Origin: Acidimicrobiia bacterium
GTDB taxonomy: Bacteria; Actinomycetota; Acidimicrobiia; Spongiisociales; UBA5794
Direction: 5' to 3'
DNA: 64,000 nucleotides
NCBI GenBank assembly: GCA_051011415.1
Contig: JBPCTY010000147.1
Span: 8,405-72,404 of the forward strand
The notes beneath the pieces were generated by a model. It did not search any database. It was not told the origin of the DNA and worked only from the letters and a program-made list of their open reading frames with translations. This document shows positions 454 to 59,532 of the stretch, piece by piece. A program made the position numbers and the translations under genes. How positions within the stretch are numbered: position 1 is the stretch's first letter; each line of letters starts with the position of its first letter.

Positions 454-1898
454 CCGTTCGCGTCAGATTCGCCCCCTCGCCGACGGGTTATCTCCACGTC
501 GGATCGGCTCGCACGGCTCTGTACAACTATCTCTTCGCGAAGAGCAACGGTGGTTCGTTCATTCTCCGTTCGGATGACACTGATCAGGCCCGCTCCTCGG
601 AAGAGTTCCAATCTGACATTCTCGAGCATCTTGATTGGCTCGATCTGCCATGGGACGAAGGCTTTGCCAAGGGTGGCGATCACGGTTCGTATAGGCAGTC
701 CGACAGATTCGACCGGTACGCGGAGGTCGCCCACCAGCTTGTCGAGGATGGCTGGGCTTACTACTCGTTTGCATCACCCGAAGATCTAGAAGACTTCAAG
801 AAGGCTGCTCGTGAGGCAGGGACATCCCCGGCGTACGACGGGTCCCGCGAGCCGTCGCGCGAAGAAGTGTCACGCCTTCTTGCCTCTGGCACAAAGGCTG
901 TCGTTCGATTCAAGGTGCCTCGGCCGGGAGAAACCGCGTTCAACGACCTTGTCCGTGGCGACATGCTGTTCGATCATGCTCAGGTCGATGACTTTGTCAT
1001 CTTGCGGTCCGATGGGTCGCCGACCTACCACCTTGCCTCAACCGTCGACGACGTGGACTACGGCATCACACACGTGATCCGGGGCGAGGACCTCCTGTCC
1101 TCTACGCCGAAACACATCCTCCTCACGCAGGCGATGGGTGCAGATGCGGCAACGTATGCACACCTGTCGCTCCTGATGGGCCCCGATGGCAAGAAGCTGT
1201 CGAAGCGGCACGGCGACACTGCGATGAGCGCATATCGTGAAGCGGGCTATTTGCCCGAAGCGATGAACAACTACCTTGCGTTGCTCGGTTGGTCGGGCGG
1301 CGAGGAGGAGGACATCATTAGACGGTCGGACATGGTGTCCCGCTTCGACATTGATGATGTCTCCAAGAATCCGGCGATCTTTGACCCAAAGAAGCTCGAG
1401 TGGATGAACGGTGTCTATATCAGGGACATGTCAGACGACAGCTTCACCAACAGCGTCACTGCGCTGGTTGAAGCCGATCTTGGCCAACCGTTGACCACAC
1501 AGCAGTCTGACCGTTTGGCGGCGATCATTCCGCATGTGAAGGAACGCACCAAGCTGCTCACGGATGTGCCCGATCAAACACGATTCTTGATGGGGGATCT
1601 TGAGGGATACGACGAGAGTTCCTGGTCGAAGGCCGTTGACAGTCCGGAAGGCGCTGCCGCGCTTGACGGCGCGATCGCAGCGCTCGAACAGGTCGACCCG
1701 TGGACCACTGACCTGATCGACGATGCGCTACGAGGAATGCTTGCCGAGCAGGGCCTTTCGGCCCGCAAAGGTTTGCAACCGATCCGCGTTGCGATTTCCG
1801 GGTCCACTGTGAGCCCTCCGCTGTTCGAATCACTTGAGGTGCTCGGTAGGGAACAGTCCCTCAGTCGTCTCATTGCTGCTCGGTCGCATCTTGGCTGA
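450..1898 (+). CDS. gltX: Glutamate--tRNA ligase
   Basis: 482 aa. It carries the class I HIGH-type motif (PSPTGYLHVGSARTA) and a KMSKS-type motif (KLSKRHG). tRNA-Gln and tRNA-Glu follow it. Confidence 0.95.
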   Translation: MTVRVRFAPSPTGYLHVGSARTALYNYLFAKSNGGSFILRSDDTDQARSSEEFQSDILEHLDWLDLPWDEGFAKGGDHGSYRQSDRFDRYAEVAHQLVEDGWAYYSFASPEDLEDFKKAAREAGTSPAYDGSREPSREEVSRLLASGTKAVVRFKVPRPGETAFNDLVRGDMLFDHAQVDDFVILRSDGSPTYHLASTVDDVDYGITHVIRGEDLLSSTPKHILLTQAMGADAATYAHLSLLMGPDGKKLSKRHGDTAMSAYREAGYLPEAMNNYLALLGWSGGEEEDIIRRSDMVSRFDIDDVSKNPAIFDPKKLEWMNGVYIRDMSDDSFTNSVTALVEADLGQPLTTQQSDRLAAIIPHVKERTKLLTDVPDQTRFLMGDLEGYDESSWSKAVDSPEGAAALDGAIAALEQVDPWTTDLIDDALRGMLAEQGLSARKGLQPIRVAISGSTVSPPLFESLEVLGREQSLSRLIAARSHLG

Positions 1899-2277
1899 AG
1901 TACCTGCAGACGCGACAATCACCTTCCTTCCTTGCAGCGACCTCGGTGCGAGCCGGGAGTTCTACGAGGCGGTGCTCGGGTTGCAGCTTGTTGCAGATCA
2001 GGGAACGTGTTTGATCTTCAAGGCCTCTGCCGACGGCTTCGTTGGGGTATGCACTCGTGCAAACCCAGACCCCGGCGACGGAATCATTGTCACGCTTGTC
2101 GCAGACGATGTCGACAGATGGTGCAACGAGATCGTTCATCGGGGCGGTGTCCTTGCATCGGGTCCGGAGCACAGCGACTCCTATCCGATCTACCACGCGT
2201 TCATCGCTGATCCCGATGGAAACCTCGTCGAAATCCAGCGCTTCGATGACCCGGACTGGGCGACAGCCGCTATCTGA
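1834..2277 (+). CDS. VOC (glyoxalase/bleomycin-resistance/dioxygenase) family protein
   Basis: A single VOC beta-alpha-beta module (SREFYEAVLGLQL ... HAFIADPDGNLVEI). Coordinates are the maximal ORF. The true start is probably an in-frame TTG at 1873 or 1891, because the 5' end overlaps gltX. Confidence 0.65.
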   Translation: MRCSVGNSPSVVSLLLGRILAEVPADATITFLPCSDLGASREFYEAVLGLQLVADQGTCLIFKASADGFVGVCTRANPDPGDGIIVTLVADDVDRWCNEIVHRGGVLASGPEHSDSYPIYHAFIADPDGNLVEIQRFDDPDWATAAI

Positions 2278-2294
2278 CCTTCTCCGAGGCGTTG

Positions 2295-2324
2295 TTGCCA
2301 ATAGAGAGGTCCAGCACGTATCCT
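2295..2324 (+). promoter_or_regulatory. Candidate promoter for the tRNA-Gln/tRNA-Glu pair
   Basis: TTGCCA (2295-2300), an 18-nt spacer, then TATCCT (2319-2324, TANNNT type), ending 12 nt before tRNA-Gln. Based on sequence pattern only. Confidence 0.3.
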
Positions 2325-2335
2325 TGCCGACGCCT

Positions 2336-2407
2336 TCGGGGATGGTGTAATTGGCAACACGCCTGGTTCTGGTCCAGACATTGAGGGTTCAAGTCCTTCT
2401 CCCCGAG
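2336..2407 (+). tRNA. tRNA-Gln (anticodon CTG)
   Basis: Hand-folded cloverleaf. Acceptor stem UCGGGGA/UCCCCGA, D stem GUGU/ACAC, anticodon loop UU-CUG-GU, T arm GAGGG-UUCAAGU-CCUUC, discriminator G. No CCA is encoded. Confidence 0.9.
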
Positions 2408-2428
2408 CTGGCAGATATCTGCCGAAAT

Positions 2429-2504
2429 GGCCCCGTCGTCTAGCGGCCTAGGACGCTGCCCTCTCAAGGCAGTAGCGCCGGTTCAAATCCGGTCGGGGCT
2501 ACCA
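2429..2504 (+). tRNA. tRNA-Glu (anticodon CTC), CCA encoded
   Basis: Cloverleaf with the typical tRNA-Glu D arm (UCGUCUAGCGGCCUAGGAC), anticodon stem-loop CUGCC-CU-CUC-AA-GGCAG, T loop UUCAAAU, and a 3' ACCA. Confidence 0.9.
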
Positions 2505-2508
2505 CACA

Positions 2509-2538
2509 AAGACCCCCTGTCATCTGGCAGGGGGTCTT
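2509..2538 (+). terminator. Stem-loop directly after tRNA-Glu (probable terminator or processing hairpin)
   Basis: A perfect 11-bp stem, AAGACCCCCUG (2509-2519) pairing with CAGGGGGUCUU (2528-2538), and an 8-nt loop. The U-tract is weak. Confidence 0.55.
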
Positions 2539-2585
2539 GTGCTTGGCTGAGTCGGGTGCAGCGTCACCGGTACGCTGTTCAGGTG

Positions 2586-4034
2586 ATGGGTGTGGCTTGT
2601 TTTCGTCGGACAGTGGTGGGCTTTGTTGTGCTTGCCATTGGGCTCAGTGTGCTGATAGCCGCAGCCCCGTCTGCATCCGCTGGCGACCATCCCGATGCAA
2701 CGGCAGTAGTCGATGGCTCCCAGGGGATCTGGTACCTCAGAGACGGTGCATCAGAGGCCACCACATCGTTCTACTACGGCAACCCTGGCGACGAGCCGTT
2801 CCTAGGCGACTGGGACTGTGATGGCGAAGACACCCCCGGTCTGTATCGACGATCCGATGGGTACGTGTACCTTCGCAACTCGAACACGCAGGGCATCGCC
2901 GATGTCGCCTTCTTCTTTGGAGATCCAGGCGATGTCCCACTTCCCGGTGACTTCAATGGTGATGGTTGCGACACCGTGTCGCTGTATCGCCCTTCGAACG
3001 GTCGTTTCTACGTCATCAACAAACTTGGTCAGGGAGATGAGGGTCTCGGGGCTGCAGAGGCCGACTACGCCTTCGGAAATCCAAGCGATACGCCATTTGC
3101 CGGTGACTTCGACGGTGATGGAATCGACACGTTCGGCCTCCATCGGCGTCTCACAGGCGAGGTCTTCCTGCGCAACGCACATGCGGGCGGGGCTGCGGAC
3201 GTCTCCTTCGTTTACGGAGACCGAGGTGACAGGGTCGTCGCAGGAAAGTGGGTAGGTGACGCAGACACCGTCGGGCTGTATCGGCCCTCGACTGGCACGT
3301 TCTTCCTTCGATACACCAACGATCCCGGGCCCGCTGATACCCAGCACCAATATGGGGGCCGCGAGTTCACGCCGATTGCAGGCAGCTTCCGGTTGCCAGG
3401 TGGGACGGATGCGCCGCCAGTCAACGCCCCCTATATGGTCGCCGACTACACCACCTATCACGGGGCCGGTGAAGATCGCAATATCAATATCAACCTGATC
3501 GCAGACATGGTCGACGGAGCGGTGGTTCTTCCAGGAGAAGTCTTCTCACTGAACGACCACGTCGGGCAGCGAACCGTTGAAAAGGGTTTCGTTCCTGCTG
3601 GTGCAATCATCGGCGGGAAGATCTATTGCTGCGACCACCCGGCGAACATCGGTGGCGGCACATCCCAGTTTGCGACCACCCTCTACAACGCCATCTTCTT
3701 CGGCGGCTACGAGGACGTGTACCACCGACCCCACTCCCTGTACTTCAACCGCTACCCGGTGGTGAGGGAGGCGACTCTGGGTTTTCCCGGCCCTGACGTG
3801 TCGTTCCGCAACGACACAGCCTTCCCGGTCACGATCCGCACGGGACACACGTCAACCGCGATCACCGTTCAGCTGTGGGGGGACAACGAGGGACGTATCG
3901 TCGAAACCTCGACGGTTGGTGAGGTGACATCGGACGGCGGCGGTAAGGCCACGGTCTATCGGACGATCATCTCAGCGAACGGTTCCTATCGCGTGCAACA
4001 GTGGACCCACACATACAGGGTGCCGCTCGAGTGA
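2586..4034 (+). CDS. Secreted protein: four FG-GAP/VCBS-like Ca-binding repeats plus a C-terminal VanW domain
   Basis: Start refined to the ATG at 2586, because the upstream part of the ORF overlaps tRNA-Glu. Signal peptide (VLAIGLSVLIAAAPSASA). Repeats follow the pattern GDxxGDGxDTxGLYR. The VanW core is LPGEVFSLNDHVG...CCDHPANIGGGTSQFATTLYNA. Confidence 0.8.
   Translation: MGVACFRRTVVGFVVLAIGLSVLIAAAPSASAGDHPDATAVVDGSQGIWYLRDGASEATTSFYYGNPGDEPFLGDWDCDGEDTPGLYRRSDGYVYLRNSNTQGIADVAFFFGDPGDVPLPGDFNGDGCDTVSLYRPSNGRFYVINKLGQGDEGLGAAEADYAFGNPSDTPFAGDFDGDGIDTFGLHRRLTGEVFLRNAHAGGAADVSFVYGDRGDRVVAGKWVGDADTVGLYRPSTGTFFLRYTNDPGPADTQHQYGGREFTPIAGSFRLPGGTDAPPVNAPYMVADYTTYHGAGEDRNININLIADMVDGAVVLPGEVFSLNDHVGQRTVEKGFVPAGAIIGGKIYCCDHPANIGGGTSQFATTLYNAIFFGGYEDVYHRPHSLYFNRYPVVREATLGFPGPDVSFRNDTAFPVTIRTGHTSTAITVQLWGDNEGRIVETSTVGEVTSDGGGKATVYRTIISANGSYRVQQWTHTYRVPLE
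2769..3389 (+). repeat. Four tandem repeats of about 50 aa each inside the CDS (FG-GAP/VCBS-like)
   Basis: The repeat unit FGxPGDxPxxGD[WF][DN]GDGxDTxGLYRxSxGxFxLR occurs four times (aa 115-321 of the 2427 ORF frame). Confidence 0.6.
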
Positions 4035-53500: not shown

Positions 53501-53585
53501 TGCCCGCACCTGCCGCGATGCGGACGGGGACCGGATCGTGACCGATGATCGCGTTCTGTTCGGGGGATGGAGTGAATCCGTTCAT
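50535..53585 (-). CDS. adnB: UvrD/PcrA-type helicase fused to a C-terminal PD-(D/E)XK nuclease (AdnB-like subunit)
   Basis: Start refined to MNGFTPSPEQ (ATGA overlap with adnA). Walker A AGAGTGKTT. The nuclease motif GKVDAVY...IVDYKSG is followed by CRWCDFLHHC. Confidence 0.75.
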   Translation of the reverse strand: MNGFTPSPEQNAIIGHDPVPVRIAAGAGTGKTTTIVERLARAVANGADPARALGITFTNKAADELRYRLRMTIPERADGREVEVATYHGFAAGLLDEFGAHIGHPAGAQLMDEAHRSELAIRVLREYDGDLLDLTALPQRRDELLMLASNMRDNLVTAKRVRADAPSDPDATWQKRLALVDAVEEFEAAKVALGLIEYGDLLRLAVEIVENHPEVVAEVRSRYDMVLLDEYQDTDPVQRRLLRELFGDGTSVTAVGDTDQTIYEWRGASIENFEEFPNDFPQAEGGETATLPLSINRRSDRSIIEMANLVKTELPDAGGAAPLVASPSAADGTIVAAWLNSESDEADWIARDILVRHSNGVPYAEIAVLCRKRDGMRPIADAFRAAGIPYSVGSMGELLNVPEITDLVAWLSVLADPSDEASLLRILTGGRYRLGMSEVAALIRSRPAKTSTLIDAVLADDVGTRLEGADFDEKAHESASSFASVYRELFVQCQAMTVAATLEALLTALDYWAEVAVLPEARATTTRININRFSDLTERWRPLDGAPSLAGYLRYLDALDESGRAEELDAAELPAEDAVRILTAHGAKGLEWDEVYIPALSSKIFPSSVIRYYDPIDSHVALPYSMQLTGSTMSSVDQTSDVKERKRQLKIRHDHQEWRLAYVAVTRARHRLVFTGHVWHADNVKPRTPSELLTLALESPATELDRVLDEPGPRPEPPEYVPTPLPPDPLFDVSWSDALRNTVDRPEWAEEAFPEVAAAVDKKSEQLNIEFEGLSDPAAADTERPFATSVTNLVALKQCPLKFKWIHHDRLPRKPRLSARKGTEFHRRAELHNLGVLALDDAQDVTYDSPSSEGAVEPSVDPWNVFTASRFSKEHPMLVETPFEITLDGRTLRGKVDAVYGTPDRWEIVDYKSGAPSPSTSKTVQLQAYAVAATEGAISTNVPDNVYVTFAYFGVSPVAVETEAADEQWLDAAHEQITDLLEQAELGPFPAAPTPACRWCDFLHHCPAGKAAVADR

Positions 53586-56521
53586 GGCAGAAATGCCTCC
53601 GCCCCCTGCGGCATCGCCGGACAGGTGGCGGCGACCGAGCATGTGCGGCAGTGCTTTCCTGGCGTTGGCGGAAACTCCTCTGCGGTGATTGCGTCTGCAA
53701 TCTCCACCATTCGGTCCTTCACCGAGTCGATTTCGCCCATGTCGAATGATCGGGTGCTGATGCCTCGCTTCAGGACGTCCTTCGGATACCAGAACTCTGC
53801 AGCATCGACCGAGCCAAGACCGGCGAACCTAGGGTCGGCCGCGACAGCCATCGCGTAGAAGCCGAGTTGCAGAGACGATGCGGCTTCGGCGATCGTTGCT
53901 GACTTTCCAGACTTGTAGTCGACAACGGTGACGGAGTCACCCGCGCGTTCGATCCGATCGGCGCGACCTCTCCACGGGGTGCCATCCACTTCGAGCTCAA
54001 GTGCCACTTCAAGATCTACCGGCACACCGGTGGATGGCCAGTTTTCGTACAGGTTTGTAATCAAGGTCGCGGCTCGACGCTTCCATGCCATGCCGACGCT
54101 GTCGGAGCCGAACCCTGCCTCTGGAAAGAGAATGTCGAGTTGCCTGAGAGCTTCCTCGCTTGTTGAACGGGGTCGTCCTTCGCTCATGGCATTTCGTTCC
54201 GCCGCTTCAAGCACATCGTGGAGCAACGTGCCGATCCGCATATAGGGGGACTCTTCGGTGGCTGAGAGCAGGAACCGCTCAGCGACGTAGCGTCGTGGAC
54301 AGTCGTCGAAGCTCTTTGCCTGGCTGGGGGAGAGCTTGAGCCTGTCGGTTATCACTCCGTGGTCTGCGCCCTCGCGTCGCGTCCCATACCTATCGAGAGG
54401 TCCGGTGCCTGTCGGGTCCGTTGCGAGAAACGAGAGAGCTGCCAGCCGGTCCACCGTGGTGGCCTGCGGGTCTGCGAGAACTCGTCGCAGGCTCGAAACC
54501 ATTGCCTTCGGGGTCAAGGGTGTCGCACTCGTTGATGCCGGAGTCGTAGGCCGGACGAGGCGCATGAATCGGCTCGGCGCTGATCCGGCTCCTTCATCTG
54601 TTGCCGTTGTCGCCGTCCACACGACACGGTTGGCTGAGCGTGTCATTGCCGTATAGGCAAGGCGTCGTTCCTCGTCGAGACGGAACGTGACGTAATCGGC
54701 GGTCGCTGTTGGCAAGTTGGGGTTGAGGTGACGGACACCGAGCAGCGAGTCCCTGGTACGTAGATCAGGAAGCGCACCCTCAACAGCGTCAGCGATGAAC
54801 ACGACATCAAATTCGGTCCCCTTGCTGCGGTGAAGTGTCGAGATGGTGACGCCGATTGCATCGTCGACCGAGAAGAGAGGTTCTGCCTCGAAGTCGAATT
54901 GTGCGGACAGGGCAGCGTGGTCGGCCAGAGTCGTGTGTTCGTCTCGCCCCGCAATGCGTTCCAGGACTTGTGCATACGCCGCCCACGCCCTTCGGTCTCG
55001 CTCAAACTCGTCATCAGATGCGACGATCTCGAGCTGAGGGAGCGTTGACCAGATGGTCCACAGTCCAGCCGACGCTGGTTGGTTGTTGCACCAGGCCGGT
55101 GTGCCGATCAGATCGGCGAGTGGCTGATGCTGTTCTCCCACGGCGAGGAGCCATTCCGCGAGATCGGCGCCAGAACCGTCCGGCATTGTTGACACTTGTC
55201 CTTGGTTGAGTCTGAAGAAGGGGCCGAGCAGCACACGCCGCAGCGATGCTGCTGCCTCATCTCCTTCGATCGTTGCGGTGGCGACGATGTCATGCAGAAG
55301 CCTGATGACACGTTCATCGGTGAGCCGGTCCTCTGACTCCGTGTGAGGAATGTTGCGTCTATCAAGCGACCGAATCACGTCATCGACGAAGGGCCCGTGG
55401 CCCCTGGTGAAGACGGCAATGCGCTCAAGAGGAACGCCGTCGCTCAGGTGAAGCCTCTCAATCTCAGCGGCTATCCACTCGGCCTCTTGGCCGCTTGTTC
55501 CGAACTCGTGACACTGGACGCTCCCGCCTGTTCGCGTCGAGAGCACCTTGCCCGCTCCACCTGGCAGCTCTCTTGCGGTGAGCTCTACAGCTGCCTCAAG
55601 TACCTCGGTTGGTACGCGGAACGACGTCGTGAGAACGAGCCGTTCAGCTTCTTGTCCGAGTTCTGACTGCACCATCGATGGAAAGTCGAACACGTTGTTG
55701 ATGTCCGCACCGCGAAACGAGTAAATGGACTGGTACGGATCGGCAGCGACGATGAGATGAGTTGAGGACCGAGCAAGCGCCGTGAGCAGCTGCGCCTGAA
55801 CCGGCGAAGTGTCCTGGTATTCGTCGGCAACGATGTAGTCGAACGATGCGACCTCGGGGCTCGTGTTGACCAGCCGCAGTGCCTCGGCCATCACAAGCCC
55901 GTAGTCGATGCGTCCCGTGGTCCGTAGCTCACTGTTGTAGCGGTCCAGAAACTCGGGGAGTCCCTTCCATTGATCTCGGCCGATTGCTGCAACCGACTCC
56001 GACGACCCGAGCTGCTCGTGGTTGCGGAGAATGAAGTCGGTGACGTTGGCAGCCATTGCGGTGCTCGTGAGCACGCCTCGGAAGGCACCATGCCATTCCT
56101 GAGGATCCTCCAGTTCAAGCAGCCGAGCGACGAGCTGCTCTTGTTCTGCGCCCGGAAGCAGAGCTGGGGGTCTCACCCAGCCAAGCTCTGCGTGGTGTGC
56201 CTCGACCAACCGCATGGCAAGGGAGTGATAGGTGACAACGGTGATGCGGTGGGCCGCATTGCCGATCAGTTTCGTCAGCCGTGTCTTCAGATCGGCTACG
56301 CCGGTCCGTGAGAAGGTCAAGAGCAATATGGATTCAGGTTCGACGCCGTCCTCTATCGCAGACTCGATGCGAGCGCAGAGGAAGCTTGTCTTTCCCGACC
56401 CGGGTCCGCCCACGACGATCTGGGGATGTTTCGAGGAGGAGACGTGATCGGTCCACTGGTCGGGACCAATTCGGACTTCGTTGGTTGCGCCGAGAGAGGC
56501 GTCGAGAGAGAGCTGTGCCAC
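53582..56521 (-). CDS. adnA: UvrD-like helicase fused to a C-terminal PD-(D/E)XK nuclease (AdnA-like subunit)
   Basis: Walker A GGPGSGKTS. The nuclease motif GRADRIE...VVDYKSGK is followed by CRTCSVAATC. The gene order matches mycobacterial adnA-adnB. Confidence 0.75.
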   Translation of the reverse strand: MAQLSLDASLGATNEVRIGPDQWTDHVSSSKHPQIVVGGPGSGKTSFLCARIESAIEDGVEPESILLLTFSRTGVADLKTRLTKLIGNAAHRITVVTYHSLAMRLVEAHHAELGWVRPPALLPGAEQEQLVARLLELEDPQEWHGAFRGVLTSTAMAANVTDFILRNHEQLGSSESVAAIGRDQWKGLPEFLDRYNSELRTTGRIDYGLVMAEALRLVNTSPEVASFDYIVADEYQDTSPVQAQLLTALARSSTHLIVAADPYQSIYSFRGADINNVFDFPSMVQSELGQEAERLVLTTSFRVPTEVLEAAVELTARELPGGAGKVLSTRTGGSVQCHEFGTSGQEAEWIAAEIERLHLSDGVPLERIAVFTRGHGPFVDDVIRSLDRRNIPHTESEDRLTDERVIRLLHDIVATATIEGDEAAASLRRVLLGPFFRLNQGQVSTMPDGSGADLAEWLLAVGEQHQPLADLIGTPAWCNNQPASAGLWTIWSTLPQLEIVASDDEFERDRRAWAAYAQVLERIAGRDEHTTLADHAALSAQFDFEAEPLFSVDDAIGVTISTLHRSKGTEFDVVFIADAVEGALPDLRTRDSLLGVRHLNPNLPTATADYVTFRLDEERRLAYTAMTRSANRVVWTATTATDEGAGSAPSRFMRLVRPTTPASTSATPLTPKAMVSSLRRVLADPQATTVDRLAALSFLATDPTGTGPLDRYGTRREGADHGVITDRLKLSPSQAKSFDDCPRRYVAERFLLSATEESPYMRIGTLLHDVLEAAERNAMSEGRPRSTSEEALRQLDILFPEAGFGSDSVGMAWKRRAATLITNLYENWPSTGVPVDLEVALELEVDGTPWRGRADRIERAGDSVTVVDYKSGKSATIAEAASSLQLGFYAMAVAADPRFAGLGSVDAAEFWYPKDVLKRGISTRSFDMGEIDSVKDRMVEIADAITAEEFPPTPGKHCRTCSVAATCPAMPQGAEAFLP

Positions 56522-56524
56522 GGA

Positions 56525-57367
56525 TCAGCCAGCTGATCCGACGGATGCATCACCCTGCCACGCAGGACAGAGTTCTGCCTTGAAGTCGCACCAATCGCAC
56601 AGAGGGGACGTGCGGGCCGGCCAGACATCTGTGTCGATGGCCTTGTCGATCGCACCCCACAGTGCACGGAGCTGCTTGTGCATCGCATCGAGCTGTTGGT
56701 CGTTGATGTCCATCGTGTACTCGGTTGGTCCGTTGAGATAGAGCAATCGAATCCTGTGTGGGGTGATGCCTCGCGTGATCCGAATGAGGAGGGCGTAGAT
56801 CTTGAGGGCAAAGAACGCCTTGTTCGCATACCGCTCGGGCGGTGCCTTGCCCGTCTTGTAGTCGGTGATGACGAGCACTTCTCTGTCGTTGCCATCCGGC
56901 CCCGGCTCAGTGACGGTCTCCATACGGTCGAGGATGCCGCGGATCTTCATGTCGCCGACCTCGACCGTCAGATCCATCTCGAGCTCCATCGGCTCGAACG
57001 CCGTCGGGTCCTCCATCGAGAAATAGGACGCAAGCAGTTGGAGCGAACCGACACCCCACTCGCGTTCTTCTGCCTGCGTTGCAAACAGATCTGGGTACTC
57101 GGTCTGCTTCAGCTCGCTCCAAGCTTCGCGGAACAGATCGAAGAGATGATCGGGTGTCCGGTCGTCTGCGGGGAGCTCGAACAGTCGCTCAAGCGCGAGA
57201 TGTGCGGTGGTCCCCCTGGCCTGATGAACCGTTGGTTCGGTTTCGATCTTGTCGATCGACTTGAATTTGTAGAGCTGTGGGCACGTCTTGAAATCTGATG
57301 CCCTGCTTGGTGAAAGCGATGTCAACGCAGGCGGCTGGAGCGGGACTTCGGAAGCAGTTTCGGTCAT
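56525..57367 (-). CDS. PD-(D/E)XK nuclease, Cas4/AddB-type (RecB-family exonuclease)
   Basis: Start refined to MTETASE. Motifs KTCPQLYKF, GILDRME...VITDYKTGK and CDWCDFKAELC. It ends 3 nt upstream of the adnA start. Confidence 0.75.
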   Translation of the reverse strand: MTETASEVPLQPPALTSLSPSRASDFKTCPQLYKFKSIDKIETEPTVHQARGTTAHLALERLFELPADDRTPDHLFDLFREAWSELKQTEYPDLFATQAEEREWGVGSLQLLASYFSMEDPTAFEPMELEMDLTVEVGDMKIRGILDRMETVTEPGPDGNDREVLVITDYKTGKAPPERYANKAFFALKIYALLIRITRGITPHRIRLLYLNGPTEYTMDINDQQLDAMHKQLRALWGAIDKAIDTDVWPARTSPLCDWCDFKAELCPAWQGDASVGSAG

Positions 57368-57434
57368 GATTGTGACTGTACCGCACGCCCGTGACACGCC
57401 CGCGATACGCAATCCCCATCGCCGAGAGGGGCTT

Positions 57435-57508
57435 CGCGAAAACTCGAAACAAGACGCGAAAAGCAACAAGCGTTGTGGGTTGCATCAGCCCCGGGTGCGG
57501 TTTACCTT
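57435..57508 (+). promoter_or_regulatory. Conserved upstream module and candidate promoter of structured RNA copy 1
   Basis: CGCGAAAACT (57435) and CGCGAAAA (57455) lie 20 bp apart, then AGCGTT (57469), TTGCAT (57480-57485), a 17-nt spacer and TACCTT (57503-57508). Positions 57435-57485 are collinear with 58529-58579. Confidence 0.35.
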
Positions 57509-57918
57509 CTCAGTTGTTCGAAGGGCGAAAGCCTGGAGAGACGGCAGATCCGATCCCTCGGGAAAGGATCACCGGGTAAAACCGGGTCGTGTGGACGGAG
57601 GCAACTCCGGACACCGCCACCAAACGCTTCGGCGGGAGGTGAGGTCTTGAGGAGGAGCCCAGCCTTCGATAGACCACCGGGACGCAGCCGAAAGGCAGCG
57701 ACCCACCCGAAGGGACTTCGGTCCCGAAGGGAGCGTACGCAGGACTTCGGTCAGGCGGGCGCAGATCTGGAAGCGGAACCGGCCTCGGTCGGGATCGGGA
57801 CCAGGTCAGCCGGACGGAGCCGGGAAACTGGCGAGGTCCGGATCGGAGTGAGCTTCGGTTCACTTCATGGAAACCCCGAGAGGGCGAGACTTCGGTTGAG
57901 CTTCCTCGGGGTTTCTGC
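57499..57918 (+). ncRNA. Candidate structured ncRNA, copy 1 (about 420 nt); family not recognised
   Basis: At least 12 hairpins, almost all capped by GAAA, GCAA, UUCG or CUCG loops, with G:U pairs that only work on the + strand and an 11-bp terminal stem. It is paralogous to 58604-58892. No plausible CDS spans it. Confidence 0.5.
57869..57916 (+). terminator. Terminator-like stem-loop closing RNA copy 1; it abuts the stop of the convergent lipoprotein gene
   Basis: GAAACCCCGAG (57870-57880) pairs with CUCGGGGUUUC (57905-57915). An inner UUCG hairpin sits in the loop, and UUUCU follows the stem. Confidence 0.5.
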
Positions 57919-57920
57919 AT

Positions 57921-58508
57921 TCAGCAGTTCGGTACACGCTCGATCAGCTGTACCAGCGCATCATCGTCGGTTGACCAAAGGTTTCCAGCCAGATGCTCAT
58001 CGTGTGATCCGTCGATGGTGTAGGTGGCGAGATCGATGCGTTCGTCGTCTTCGATCGTCAATCGAGACCCGTATGCGTCCTCGAGATCGATCCTGGTCGA
58101 ATCGAGACCGATTCCCTCCTCGGTCCGAAGACCGAGTCTGCGAAAGTCCTCAGCGTTTCCTGTGACGGGATCGAAACCGTACGACCATGTGTGGAACACC
58201 GACTGGACCCCATCGTCGACAAACAGGAGGACGAGGTTGCCCCATGAGACGAGTCGCGTCTCGCCACCCGGGCACTGAGGAACCTGGACCCTTGTGTCCT
58301 CGTCCGCCGAGTCGGCATCCCATCCACCAAGCTGGGAAGAGAGTCCAGATATGACCTCGTCCGCGGCCATGCCGATGCGGAACTCACCGATGCCATTCTC
58401 TGCCAAGACAAGCGAAGGATGGGGATTCGATTGGGATTCGTCCGAACCACTGCAGGACGCCAGAACCAGGGCAGCCACGGTTAGTCCGACGACAACTACG
58501 GAGCGCAT
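57921..58508 (-). CDS. Lipoprotein of unknown function
   Basis: Start refined to MRSVVVVGLTVAALVLASC (lipobox). The mature part is 195 aa and has no recognisable domain. Confidence 0.6.
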   Translation of the reverse strand: MRSVVVVGLTVAALVLASCSGSDESQSNPHPSLVLAENGIGEFRIGMAADEVISGLSSQLGGWDADSADEDTRVQVPQCPGGETRLVSWGNLVLLFVDDGVQSVFHTWSYGFDPVTGNAEDFRRLGLRTEEGIGLDSTRIDLEDAYGSRLTIEDDERIDLATYTIDGSHDEHLAGNLWSTDDDALVQLIERVPNC

Positions 58509-58603
58509 ATCTGCAGCGTACCGGTGACCGCGAAAACTGCCCGCAACTCGCGAAAACGAAGGAGCGTTTTGACTTGCGAAGCAGCACCACATGCCCCAAT
58601 ATT

Positions 58604-58892
58604 GGTTTACCGCAGAAGGGGAAACCCGGAAGCGGGCGTCGAAGGGAAACCGACGGCGGCTGGCGAAAGCCAGCAGGGTCCGGAAACGGATCCAAAACTC
58701 TGGACGGAGACACCCTCGGGTGGAAAGAGGCGAAAGCCAGCCGGACGGCTTAGGTCGGACGGAACGGAAGGAGAGGGAGTGAGCTTCGGCTCATGACCGG
58801 GCTCCGCTTGCGGAGCAGCGAGATCACTGATCGAAAGGTCAGATGGTTCGCAGAGAACCCCAAGGGGGCTCCGGCTTCCTTGGGGTTTCTCG
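58604..58892 (+). ncRNA. Candidate structured ncRNA, copy 2 (about 290 nt), paralogue of 57499-57918
   Basis: Shared sequence blocks: GGTTTACC, TCGAAGGG, GACGGC, TGGACGGAG, CAGCCGGACGG, GGAGTGAGCTTCGG, GGGGTTTCT. Hairpins: GCUGGC-GAAA-GCCAGC, GGGUCCG-GAAA-CGGAUCC, CUGAUC-GAAA-GGUCAG, GCUCCG-CUUG-CGGAGC, UGAGC-UUCG-GCUCA. Confidence 0.5.
58853..58891 (+). terminator. Terminator-like stem-loop closing RNA copy 2
   Basis: AACCCCAAGG (58856-58865) pairs with CCUUGGGGUU (58878-58887), followed by UCU. The stem covaries with the copy-1 terminator (CGAG/CUCG against CAAGG/CCUUG). Confidence 0.5.
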
Positions 58893-58914
58893 CGTCCGGA
58901 GTACCACACCCCGC

Positions 58915-58920
58915 TAATGT
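58915..58920 (+). promoter_or_regulatory. Candidate -10 element (TAATGT) for a leaderless transcript of the PH-SHOCT gene
   Basis: A TANNNT hexamer ends 6 nt before the ATG at 58927, and no Shine-Dalgarno sequence lies between them. Confidence 0.3.
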
Positions 58921-58926
58921 GCTCCT

Positions 58927-59532
58927 ATGGCTTGGCCCGAAGACGCACTCTCACACGACGAACAAATCATCACTTCCTTCCGACCACACTGGAAGCTGCT
59001 GTTCGTCCCGTTCCTCTGGTTCATCGGTTTCCTGATTGCGGGTTCTCTCGTGGCGGTGTACCTCGATTTCGCCCGGTGGGTGGTATTGGCGATCATCGTC
59101 GGGTTCTTTGTCTACTTCGTCGTGCGGCCGCTTGTCGCCTGGGCGACCACTCGCTATGTGCTGACAACCGAACGGCTGATCACCCGCAAAGGCCTGATCG
59201 CAAAATCCGGAATCGAGATTCCACTCGAGCGCATCACAAACGTGAACTTCAGCCAAAGCGTCTTCGAACGAATGCTCGGTGCGGGCGATCTTCTGGTGGA
59301 ATCCGCAGGCACCACGGGGCAGTCGGAGTTCAAGGACATCCCACACCCGGACGAATTCCAGTCGCTCCTCTACAAGGTGAGGGAACAGAGATCGATTGAG
59401 CTCTCTGGCTCGGCGCCGGCCGGCAAGGACCATGCGGGATCGATCAGGGATCTTGCCAAGCTGAGGGACGAAGGTCTGATCTCAGCCGAAGAGTACGAGG
59501 CAAAGCGCCAGGAACTGCTCGACGACATGTAG
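58927..59532 (+). CDS. Membrane protein with a bacterial PH domain (YdbS/YdbT-like bPH_2) and a C-terminal SHOCT domain
   Basis: Two TM helices, then the bPH_2 pattern (YVLTTERLITRKGLIAKSGIEIPLERITNV...GDLLVES). The SHOCT motif is IRDLAKLRDEGLISAEEYEAKRQELL. Confidence 0.75.
   Translation: MAWPEDALSHDEQIITSFRPHWKLLFVPFLWFIGFLIAGSLVAVYLDFARWVVLAIIVGFFVYFVVRPLVAWATTRYVLTTERLITRKGLIAKSGIEIPLERITNVNFSQSVFERMLGAGDLLVESAGTTGQSEFKDIPHPDEFQSLLYKVREQRSIELSGSAPAGKDHAGSIRDLAKLRDEGLISAEEYEAKRQELLDDM

Follow-up and report, generated by a model that had tools for sequence, protein, structure and literature searches.

A conserved pair of structured small RNA genes upstream of a PH-SHOCT membrane protein gene in Acidimicrobiia

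The stretch of DNA analysed here, 64,000 nt of contig JBPCTY010000147.1 from an Acidimicrobiia bacterium (hereafter the window), carries two diverged copies of a structured element in the same orientation. The second of these, copy 2, lies directly upstream of a gene encoding a PH-SHOCT membrane protein and encodes a structured non-coding RNA whose fold is kept by purifying selection. In our best explanation, positions ~58609-58890 of the plus strand are an independently transcribed, non-coding structured small RNA (sRNA), the type-2 member of a paralogous pair conserved in one Acidimicrobiia lineage; copy 1, some 1.1 kb upstream, would be its type-1 partner. Taken whole, including a trans-acting, protein-binding role for the products, we regard this explanation as an even bet. 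A sequence-only reading of the window had already described copy 2 as a second same-orientation copy of a structured RNA selected for its fold, and this description is supported by covariation among orthologues, by the promoter architecture, by homologous terminators, and by a cross-match between the copies with a covariance model. The decisive evidence is the conservation of orthologues with covariation, rather than the comparison of the two window copies.

A scan with one genome per species resulted in 47 loci, of which 43 are Acidimicrobiia-type metagenome-assembled genomes (MAGs), including some whose deposited names give another phylum. One or two such RNA genes are present, in the same place, in about 44 Acidimicrobiia MAG loci, and copy 2 is conserved in about 30 loci. 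By blastn, both copies are conserved with 62-78% identity over the full length, copy 2 immediately preceding the PH-SHOCT gene and copy 1 lying ~1.1-1.5 kb upstream of it. Compensatory substitutions are evident among 18 aligned type-2 sequences. The span-limited RNAalifold consensus of copy 2 includes 88 pairs in 14 helices, and 91.3% of its cells are paired, against 36-52% in controls where the partners were slid by 1-3 columns. Both sides have changed in 33 of the 88 pairs (10-15 in the slid controls), and none of 500 column shuffles attains any of the observed measures. For copy 1 (16 sequences, 109 pairs), 90.5% of the cells are paired and 60 pairs are double-changed, against 15-25 in the controls. 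Pairing is kept far beyond what shuffling or sliding leaves, which bears out the earlier claim of selection on RNA structure.

The copy 2 RNA (58609-58890, plus strand) would be about 282 nt long and fold into 12 local hairpins. We placed its start at a conserved A, 7 nt past the -10 hexamer, and its end inside the U-tract; by this reading of the promoter the transcript most likely begins near 58609 and not at 58604. The 301-nt stretch around copy 2 has a minimum free energy (MFE) of -153.5 kcal/mol, against -114.7 +/- 4.9 for dinucleotide shuffles (z = -7.9, with 0 of 100 shuffles as stable). The first two hairpins (H1, 58610-58635, and H2, 58637-58658) are 5' modules of a recurring type, made of an outer stem, a purine-rich internal loop (AGAA/GGAA in one and AA/GA in the other), and GGG-GAAA-CC(C). 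Covariation backs helices 1-3 in this region, and modules of this type number 2 to 5 among orthologues. Hairpins H3 to H11, taken from the sequence and the consensus fold, lie on the same strand at 58659-74, 58676-93, 58698-709, 58711-22, 58729-38, 58741-62, 58776-97, 58801-16, and 58827-42. The MFE structure, RNAalifold, and the span-limited consensus all give a chain of local hairpins, and none of the three supports a long-range helix or a multi-stem junction. G makes up 37% and U 13% of the RNA strand. An open reading frame (ORF) overlaps copy 2, with its ATG upstream of the inferred transcription start, a point against a coding role. We rejected a protein-coding reading of copy 2 because indel lengths relative to the window copy are mostly not multiples of 3 (116 of 132 in copy 2; the count in copy 1 is 181 of 198).

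Copy 1 (~57513-57918, plus strand) would be about 405 nt long, with 13 hairpins and its 3' element at 57860-57921. Its start is placed at ~57512-57516, its fold has a z-score of -6.3, and the gene that comes next lies on the opposite strand, convergent with it. One of its hairpins, at 57660-57690, has a loop, GGAGCCCAGCC, that is invariant in all 16 aligned orthologues on a stem that covaries; copy 2 has no such loop, which is a candidate recognition or seed site.

Several results indicate that copy 2 is a diverged paralogue of the copy 1 RNA. The hairpins named in the sequence-only reading (six capped hairpins, the UUCG hairpin, and the terminator) are all present where it placed them, and so are the blocks it listed as shared between the copies: GGTTTACC (58604 in copy 2, 57499 in copy 1), TGGACGGAG (58701, 57592), CAGCCGGACGG (58738, 57807), and GGAGTGAGCTTCGG (58776, 57845). 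The last two are 27 nt apart in both copies and have no other site in the window. The positions of the ordered blocks are therefore right, but GGTTTACC does not stand as a homologous block of the RNA. We rejected it because the copy 1 instance overlaps the -10 hexamer TACCTT, and the copy 2 instance follows the -10, ahead of the start, shifted by 11 nt relative to the promoter boxes. The hairpin contexts of TCGAAGGG and TGGACGGAG differ between the copies. Some of the listed blocks belong to the promoter or reflect a hairpin module that recurs. The compensatory changes claimed between the copies were likewise half right: the A-U/G-C difference in the terminator is a true double change, but that in the UUCG hairpin is only one-sided, G:C to G:U.

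The two RNA bodies show modest similarity (Smith-Waterman score of 21, against 13.6 +/- 2.0; z = 3.6), and profile hidden Markov models built without the window rows cross-match between the types with E-values of 0.02-0.1, the matches being collinear. Similarity is much stronger between the promoters (z = 8.6), which include a 49-nt direct repeat (D1) at 71% identity. We also built a covariance model of the type-2 3' half (R2) from 17 orthologues, with the window sequences excluded. It scores copy 2 at 131.6 bits and matches the 3' half of copy 1 (57736-57915) at 35.9 bits, with E ~1.8e-8, the E-values of covariance models being rough. Its only further plus-strand match below E = 0.01 is also within copy 1. 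The R2 alignment matches the hairpins up differently from the earlier scheme of blocks, so that the one-to-one homology of hairpins between the copies is ambiguous, as expected for arrays of similar modules.

Copy 2 appears to be transcribed from a sigma-A-type promoter with two boxes upstream in fixed register, and its paralogue is arranged alike. The boxes, CGCGAAAAC in both cases, lie at 58529-58537 and 58549-58557 (20 bp start to start). They precede a core promoter, read from the sequence, at 58574-58602, which has a -35 hexamer TTGCGA (58574-58579), a 17-nt spacer, and a -10 hexamer CAATAT (58597-58602). In copy 1 (57435-57508), the boxes are at 57435-57443 and 57455-57463, the -35 hexamer TTGCAT at 57480-57485, and the -10 hexamer TACCTT at 57503-57508; all these elements are on the plus strand. 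The box pair occurs in the window only at 57435/57455 and 58529/58549, and stands at constant spacing upstream of almost all family members. The complete module, which we found by anchoring on a repeated word, consists of two CGCGAAAAC boxes, ~16 nt with a conserved AGCGTTcTGG, TTGc or TTGAC, a 17-nt spacer, and the -10 hexamer. An ungapped alignment of 64 promoters holds the boxes, the -35, and the -10 in fixed columns. The -10 hexamer is TAnnTT in type 1 (TACCTT in the window) and CAnnnT in type 2, where most orthologues have TGn ahead of it and the window has CAATAT with CCC ahead. A simple promoter/terminator scanner detected neither promoter and neither terminator; the -10 hexamers belong to the TANNNT/CANNNT type of actinobacteria, and both U-tracts are short. 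A literature search with the box sequence gave nothing but primers and unrelated sites.

The element that defines the family is at the other end of the gene. In copy 2, it covers 58844-58895 of the plus strand and includes GAGAAC, the hairpin CCCCAAGGGGGC-UCCG-GCUUCCUUGGGG (58858-58885), a U-tract, and a conserved tail, CUCGCGU. It includes the intrinsic terminator in which copy 2 ends, and its sequence, beyond its structure, is almost invariant across the family. The 31-nt core of type 2, CCCCAAGGGGGCTYCGGCTTCCTTGGGGTTT, is identical to the letter in 28 of the 47 loci, where the neighbouring protein is only 57-74% identical, and all 13 inner pairs of the terminator helix are invariant while the other helices covary freely. 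An alignment of 50 3' ends from the family gives the frame GAGAAC-CCCC(G/A)AG(R)GGG...CUYCCU(C/U)GGGG-UUUC-UCGCGU. The terminator pair that is A-U in type 2 is G-C in type 1 and in the divergent lineages, a covariation that is consistent over the whole family, and the type-1 element has an additional apical UUCG module flanked by GA/GA. A model of the 3' element (R1) scores copy 2 at E = 7.8e-15 and copy 1 at E = 1.4e-17. Because both strands of the 3' stem are constrained in sequence, including two conserved G-U pairs, the pattern suggests recognition by a partner beyond termination alone.

In the divergent loci L025, L028, L037, and L038, the RNA gene proximal to the PH-SHOCT gene has a type-1-like terminator, so types 1 and 2 converge deeper in the tree. 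Three loci with 4 kb of upstream sequence present (L019, L035, and L036) have a single RNA gene, with a short terminator of an intermediate type (CCCCGAGGGGGC...), which makes either the duplication or the place of the second copy lineage-specific. The tail past the U-tract, TTTCTCGCGT (58886-58895), is kept across the family even though it lies beyond the usual point of termination. It resembles an inverted promoter box (GTTTCTCGCG compared with GTTTTCGCG), and the factor that reads the boxes may bind here as well, at a third site.

With filters off, R1 finds exactly two plus-strand copies in the window; the next best unrelated match has E = 0.77, and the other matches below E = 0.01 are weaker minus-strand echoes of the two copies. 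Across the Acidimicrobiia loci, it finds 69 plus-strand copies, at most two per locus and always in the same place, and it has no match in the Actinoplanes, Lihuaxuella, or viral loci. Scanning metagenomes and viruses with the pattern CGCGAAAA-N12-CGCGAAAA, whose 16 bases are unspecific, gave at least 120 matches, nearly all due to chance. Among the matches listed, family members are found only in L086, L093, L139, and L157, none of which is a viral contig. L086, L093, and L157 have the same boxes, a stronger -35 (TTGAC), a TAYNTT -10, and the same 3' element, with bodies of 94, 150, 235, and 393 nt. The nearest downstream gene in L093 and L157 encodes an AMP-binding enzyme of the acyl-CoA-synthetase type, not a PH-SHOCT protein. 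In a set of 65 genes from the family, lengths are 94-579 nt and the predicted hairpins number 2-17, approximately one per 30 nt (r = 0.87 with length), and 570 of the 729 predicted loops (78%) are GNRA or UNCG/CUUG. The module that recurs has an outer stem, then an internal loop that is symmetric and rich in purines (GA/GA, GAA/GGA, or AGAA/GGAA), and lastly GGG-GNRA-CCC; its number differs among orthologues, and the internal loops are candidate tandem sheared G-A pairs.

Searches of Rfam 15 gave no RNA-family match for either copy at the gathering score and nothing meaningful between 57300 and 59000 at E up to 10; at the gathering score there was also nothing in 12 related loci. A literature search for structured RNAs of Acidimicrobiia returned nothing relevant, and we found no paper on regulatory RNAs of the class. 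The comparison with the large structured RNAs raiA, OLE, ROOL, and GOLLD shows a shared GNRA-rich, long, covariation-supported fold restricted to a single lineage, but the RNA described here has no Rfam match, no supported long-range helices, and a modular, highly variable length. It differs from the RNAs of type III toxin-antitoxin systems (ToxI-like) in having no tandem repeats by Tandem Repeats Finder (TRF) and a downstream gene with its own promoter. We class it as a new family of the general kind of independently transcribed structured bacterial sRNAs, outside any named family.

What the two RNAs could do is best considered from their design. A factor that reads the boxes, or UP-like contacts of the alpha C-terminal domain of RNA polymerase (RNAP), would co-regulate both genes, which would be strongly expressed. 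Their products would act in trans as decoys or scaffolds that bind a protein. Sites for binding or packing would be repeated along the variable array, whose hairpins are capped by GNRA/UNCG loops and have purine-rich internal loops, and the invariant hairpin at the 3' end would be an element for specific recognition or stabilisation. We favour this protein-binding step, at somewhat less than even chances, because the design is CsrB/Rsm-like (an expandable array, paralogues, a dedicated upstream sequence, and a strong terminator) and because the invariance of both 3' stem strands, with their two conserved G-U pairs, points to a partner. As in CsrB/CsrC and RsmX/Y/Z, there are separate sRNA genes in two or more paralogues per genome, a rho-independent terminator, a number of hairpins that varies between species, and a conserved upstream sequence whose distance from the promoter is constant, implying a dedicated regulator. 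Unlike those sponges, the loops here are GNRA/UNCG and not GGA, which occurs mostly in linkers and internal loops, the phylum is another, there is no sequence or Rfam similarity, and the 3' hairpin is invariant in sequence. The likeness to CsrB and RsmZ, or to 6S and Ms1, is of the "works like" kind, in design only, and not one of membership.

Several points weigh against a decoy or scaffold. The protein-binding role is argued from analogy of design alone, the loops are generic stable tetraloops with no obvious repeated protein-binding motif such as GGA, and the invariant terminator could instead reflect a constraint at the level of the DNA or of RNA processing. The smallest member, of 94 nt, has a single hairpin before the 3' element, and so the array is not essential in every member. 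A bolder version, which we consider possible yet doubtful, makes the two genes the founding pair of an undescribed class of Acidimicrobiia RNAs, with a fixed promoter module, an expandable array of 2-17 highly stable tetraloop hairpins bearing tandem purine-purine internal loops, and an invariant 3' hairpin, serving as a decoy or scaffold for a novel RNA-binding protein or as a self-packing, RNA-only particle.

Other functions have to be weighed against the protein-binding one. If the products were trans-acting base-pairing sRNAs, they would bind mRNAs through a short segment that is conserved and unpaired, with the hairpins serving mainly for stability. The possession of a promoter and terminator of their own and of paralogues would suit this, and there are candidate segments in GAGAAC, single-stranded just 5' of the terminator in all members, and in the invariant 7-11-nt apical loop GGAGCCCAGCC of copy 1. 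We think it unlikely, given RNAs of 282-480 nt that are nearly all paired, the very little conserved unpaired sequence in type 2, and the location of the strongest conservation within a stem. An RNAP-binding RNA, the Acidimicrobiia counterpart of Ms1 or 6S, would account for the strong-looking promoter, the two paralogues, and a length of 280-400 nt. Bacillus has two 6S RNAs, and 6S RNA resembles the family in having its own promoter and sometimes two paralogues; it differs in its closing stem and central bubble, which are absent here, as is any Rfam match to 6S at the gathering score or at E up to 10. Ms1 binds the RNAP core in Actinomycetia (PMC9130861, PMC4191392), and genes annotated "PH domain" are among its neighbours in some Actinobacteria, in a survey that does not list the class Acidimicrobiia (PMC9130861). 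It is also an actinobacterial sRNA of 230-300 nt that evolves fast in sequence, is found mostly by synteny, and has PH-domain neighbours in some genera. The present RNAs differ from it in forming a chain of local hairpins and not a 6S-like rod with a long-range stem and central bubble, in their two tandem genes, in their class, in a length range of 94-579 nt, and in their neighbourhood: none of the six flanking genes scanned encodes a HAD-IB hydrolase ("inhibition of morphological differentiation" gene). The Ms1 of Streptomyces coelicolor (scr3559; PMC9130861 supplement), searched by blastn against the window and the 47 loci, gave chance matches only (E >= 0.19), and no Ms1-type Rfam match was found at E up to 10. 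We therefore rejected an identification with Ms1 through the word "PH" in the synteny. The Actinoplanes PH-gene loci (L042-L044) have no match to this Ms1 either, and in the single one inspected, L043, no intergenic gap precedes the gene. All this leaves an RNAP-binding role improbable.

The act of transcription, or the locus as DNA, could be the functional unit with the RNA secondary, as a G-rich, R-loop-prone or insulating unit or as a protein-binding DNA site at the tail. The invariants of the family would agree with this, being promoter boxes, a terminator, and a box-like inverted tail (CTCGCGT) beyond the usual termination, and so would the G-rich, U-poor strand and the highly variable body. 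Dense compensatory changes along that body show selection on the RNA fold, and we hold such a function to be distinctly improbable. A cis-acting 5' leader (a riboswitch or attenuator) of the PH-SHOCT gene is suggested by the common orientation and by a terminator that ends 35 nt before the ATG of that gene. The PH-SHOCT gene (58915-59532 including its -10, plus strand, assigned by Pfam to a bPH_2 type of PH domain with SHOCT; ATG at 58927) has its own -10, TAATGT, at 58915-58920. A TANNNT hexamer is found 6-7 nt upstream of the PH-SHOCT ATG in nearly all loci, and since this is a signature of leaderless actinobacterial mRNAs, the PH-SHOCT mRNA is most simply read as leaderless, and the gene stands outside the transcription unit of the RNA. 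The spacer between the RNA terminator and this gene varies from ~25 to 100 nt across loci, is unconserved, and frequently contains simple repeats. Copy 1 has the same design and precedes a convergent gene, distant members are not beside PH-SHOCT, and the number of hairpins varies. Finally, GC-rich hairpin arrays and a gap between the genes that takes different inserted genes might recall a non-functional or selfish repeat, like a repetitive extragenic palindrome or a miniature inverted-repeat transposable element (MITE), or a recent neutral duplication. The possibility of a dispersed repeat, raised in the sequence-only reading, was checked in the window and its relatives, and the R1 counts given above, with two syntenic copies at most, speak against it. 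BLAST against plasmid and phage collections gave no match, TRF found no tandem repeats in either RNA body, and the covariation is strong and the promoter conserved. The leader is hardly tenable and the selfish repeat scarcely credible; both are effectively excluded.

Members of the class Acidimicrobiia abound in soils, in sediments, and in the sea, and almost all are uncultured. In dozens of their MAGs, a pair of sRNA genes with covariation support has been kept together with a matching cis-regulatory module, two boxes phased to the promoter. Should the RNA titrate a protein or serve as its scaffold, as in the protein-binding reading that we favour, it would be a new example of a hairpin-array regulator outside Proteobacteria and would point to a new RNA-binding protein; the phylum is generally reported to be without Hfq and ProQ. 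If the pair founds a class of its own, it would be a global regulator comparable to CsrB, 6S, or Ms1, accompanied by a new pair of transcription factor and box. At the minimum, the results provide a new RNA family with a clean alignment suitable for Rfam.

The genes around the two RNAs include, among the six flanking genes scanned with Pfam, AdnB-like and AdnA-like genes, a lipoprotein-like gene, the PH-SHOCT gene, and, downstream of it, a TrmA-like methyltransferase and an SDR gene. The AdnAB-type pair (53582-57469, minus strand) encodes a 979-aa protein with a UvrD helicase and a PD-(D/E)XK nuclease, then a 314-aa PD-(D/E)XK protein, and lies directly upstream of copy 1, divergent from it. 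The gene between the two RNAs (57921-58509, minus strand, ~196 aa), identified from the ORF list and by reading the sequence, has no Pfam match. From the ATG at 58509, its product starts with MRSVVVVGLTVAALVLASC, a typical lipoprotein signal (LASC lipobox), and is likely a lipoprotein; the start at 58592 in the ORF list is probably wrong and we prefer the ATG at 58509. A -10 hexamer, TACGCT, is at 58516-58521, and the gene appears leaderless, with its TANNNT 6-7 nt ahead of the ATG. Its inferred -35 region would overlap the copy 2 boxes. Several loci have no gene between the two RNA genes, and in the region 1100-2960 (minus strand) of L086, a divergent metagenome contig, a DUF222-HNH endonuclease gene lies between them. 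The gap between the paired RNA genes thus seems to tolerate insertions: a lipoprotein gene in the clade of the window, DUF222-HNH in L086, and none elsewhere.

The PH-SHOCT homologues that have names are mostly from Acidimicrobiia MAGs. The sole Rfam matches of the whole window are two adjacent tRNA genes on the plus strand (2336-2407 and 2429-2501). In L016, L029, L034, L039, and L046, the spacers between the type-2 terminator and the PH-SHOCT start contain short tandem repeats, e.g., of TGACGTC, GGCATCT, GTAGTCC, and GTTCTGT.

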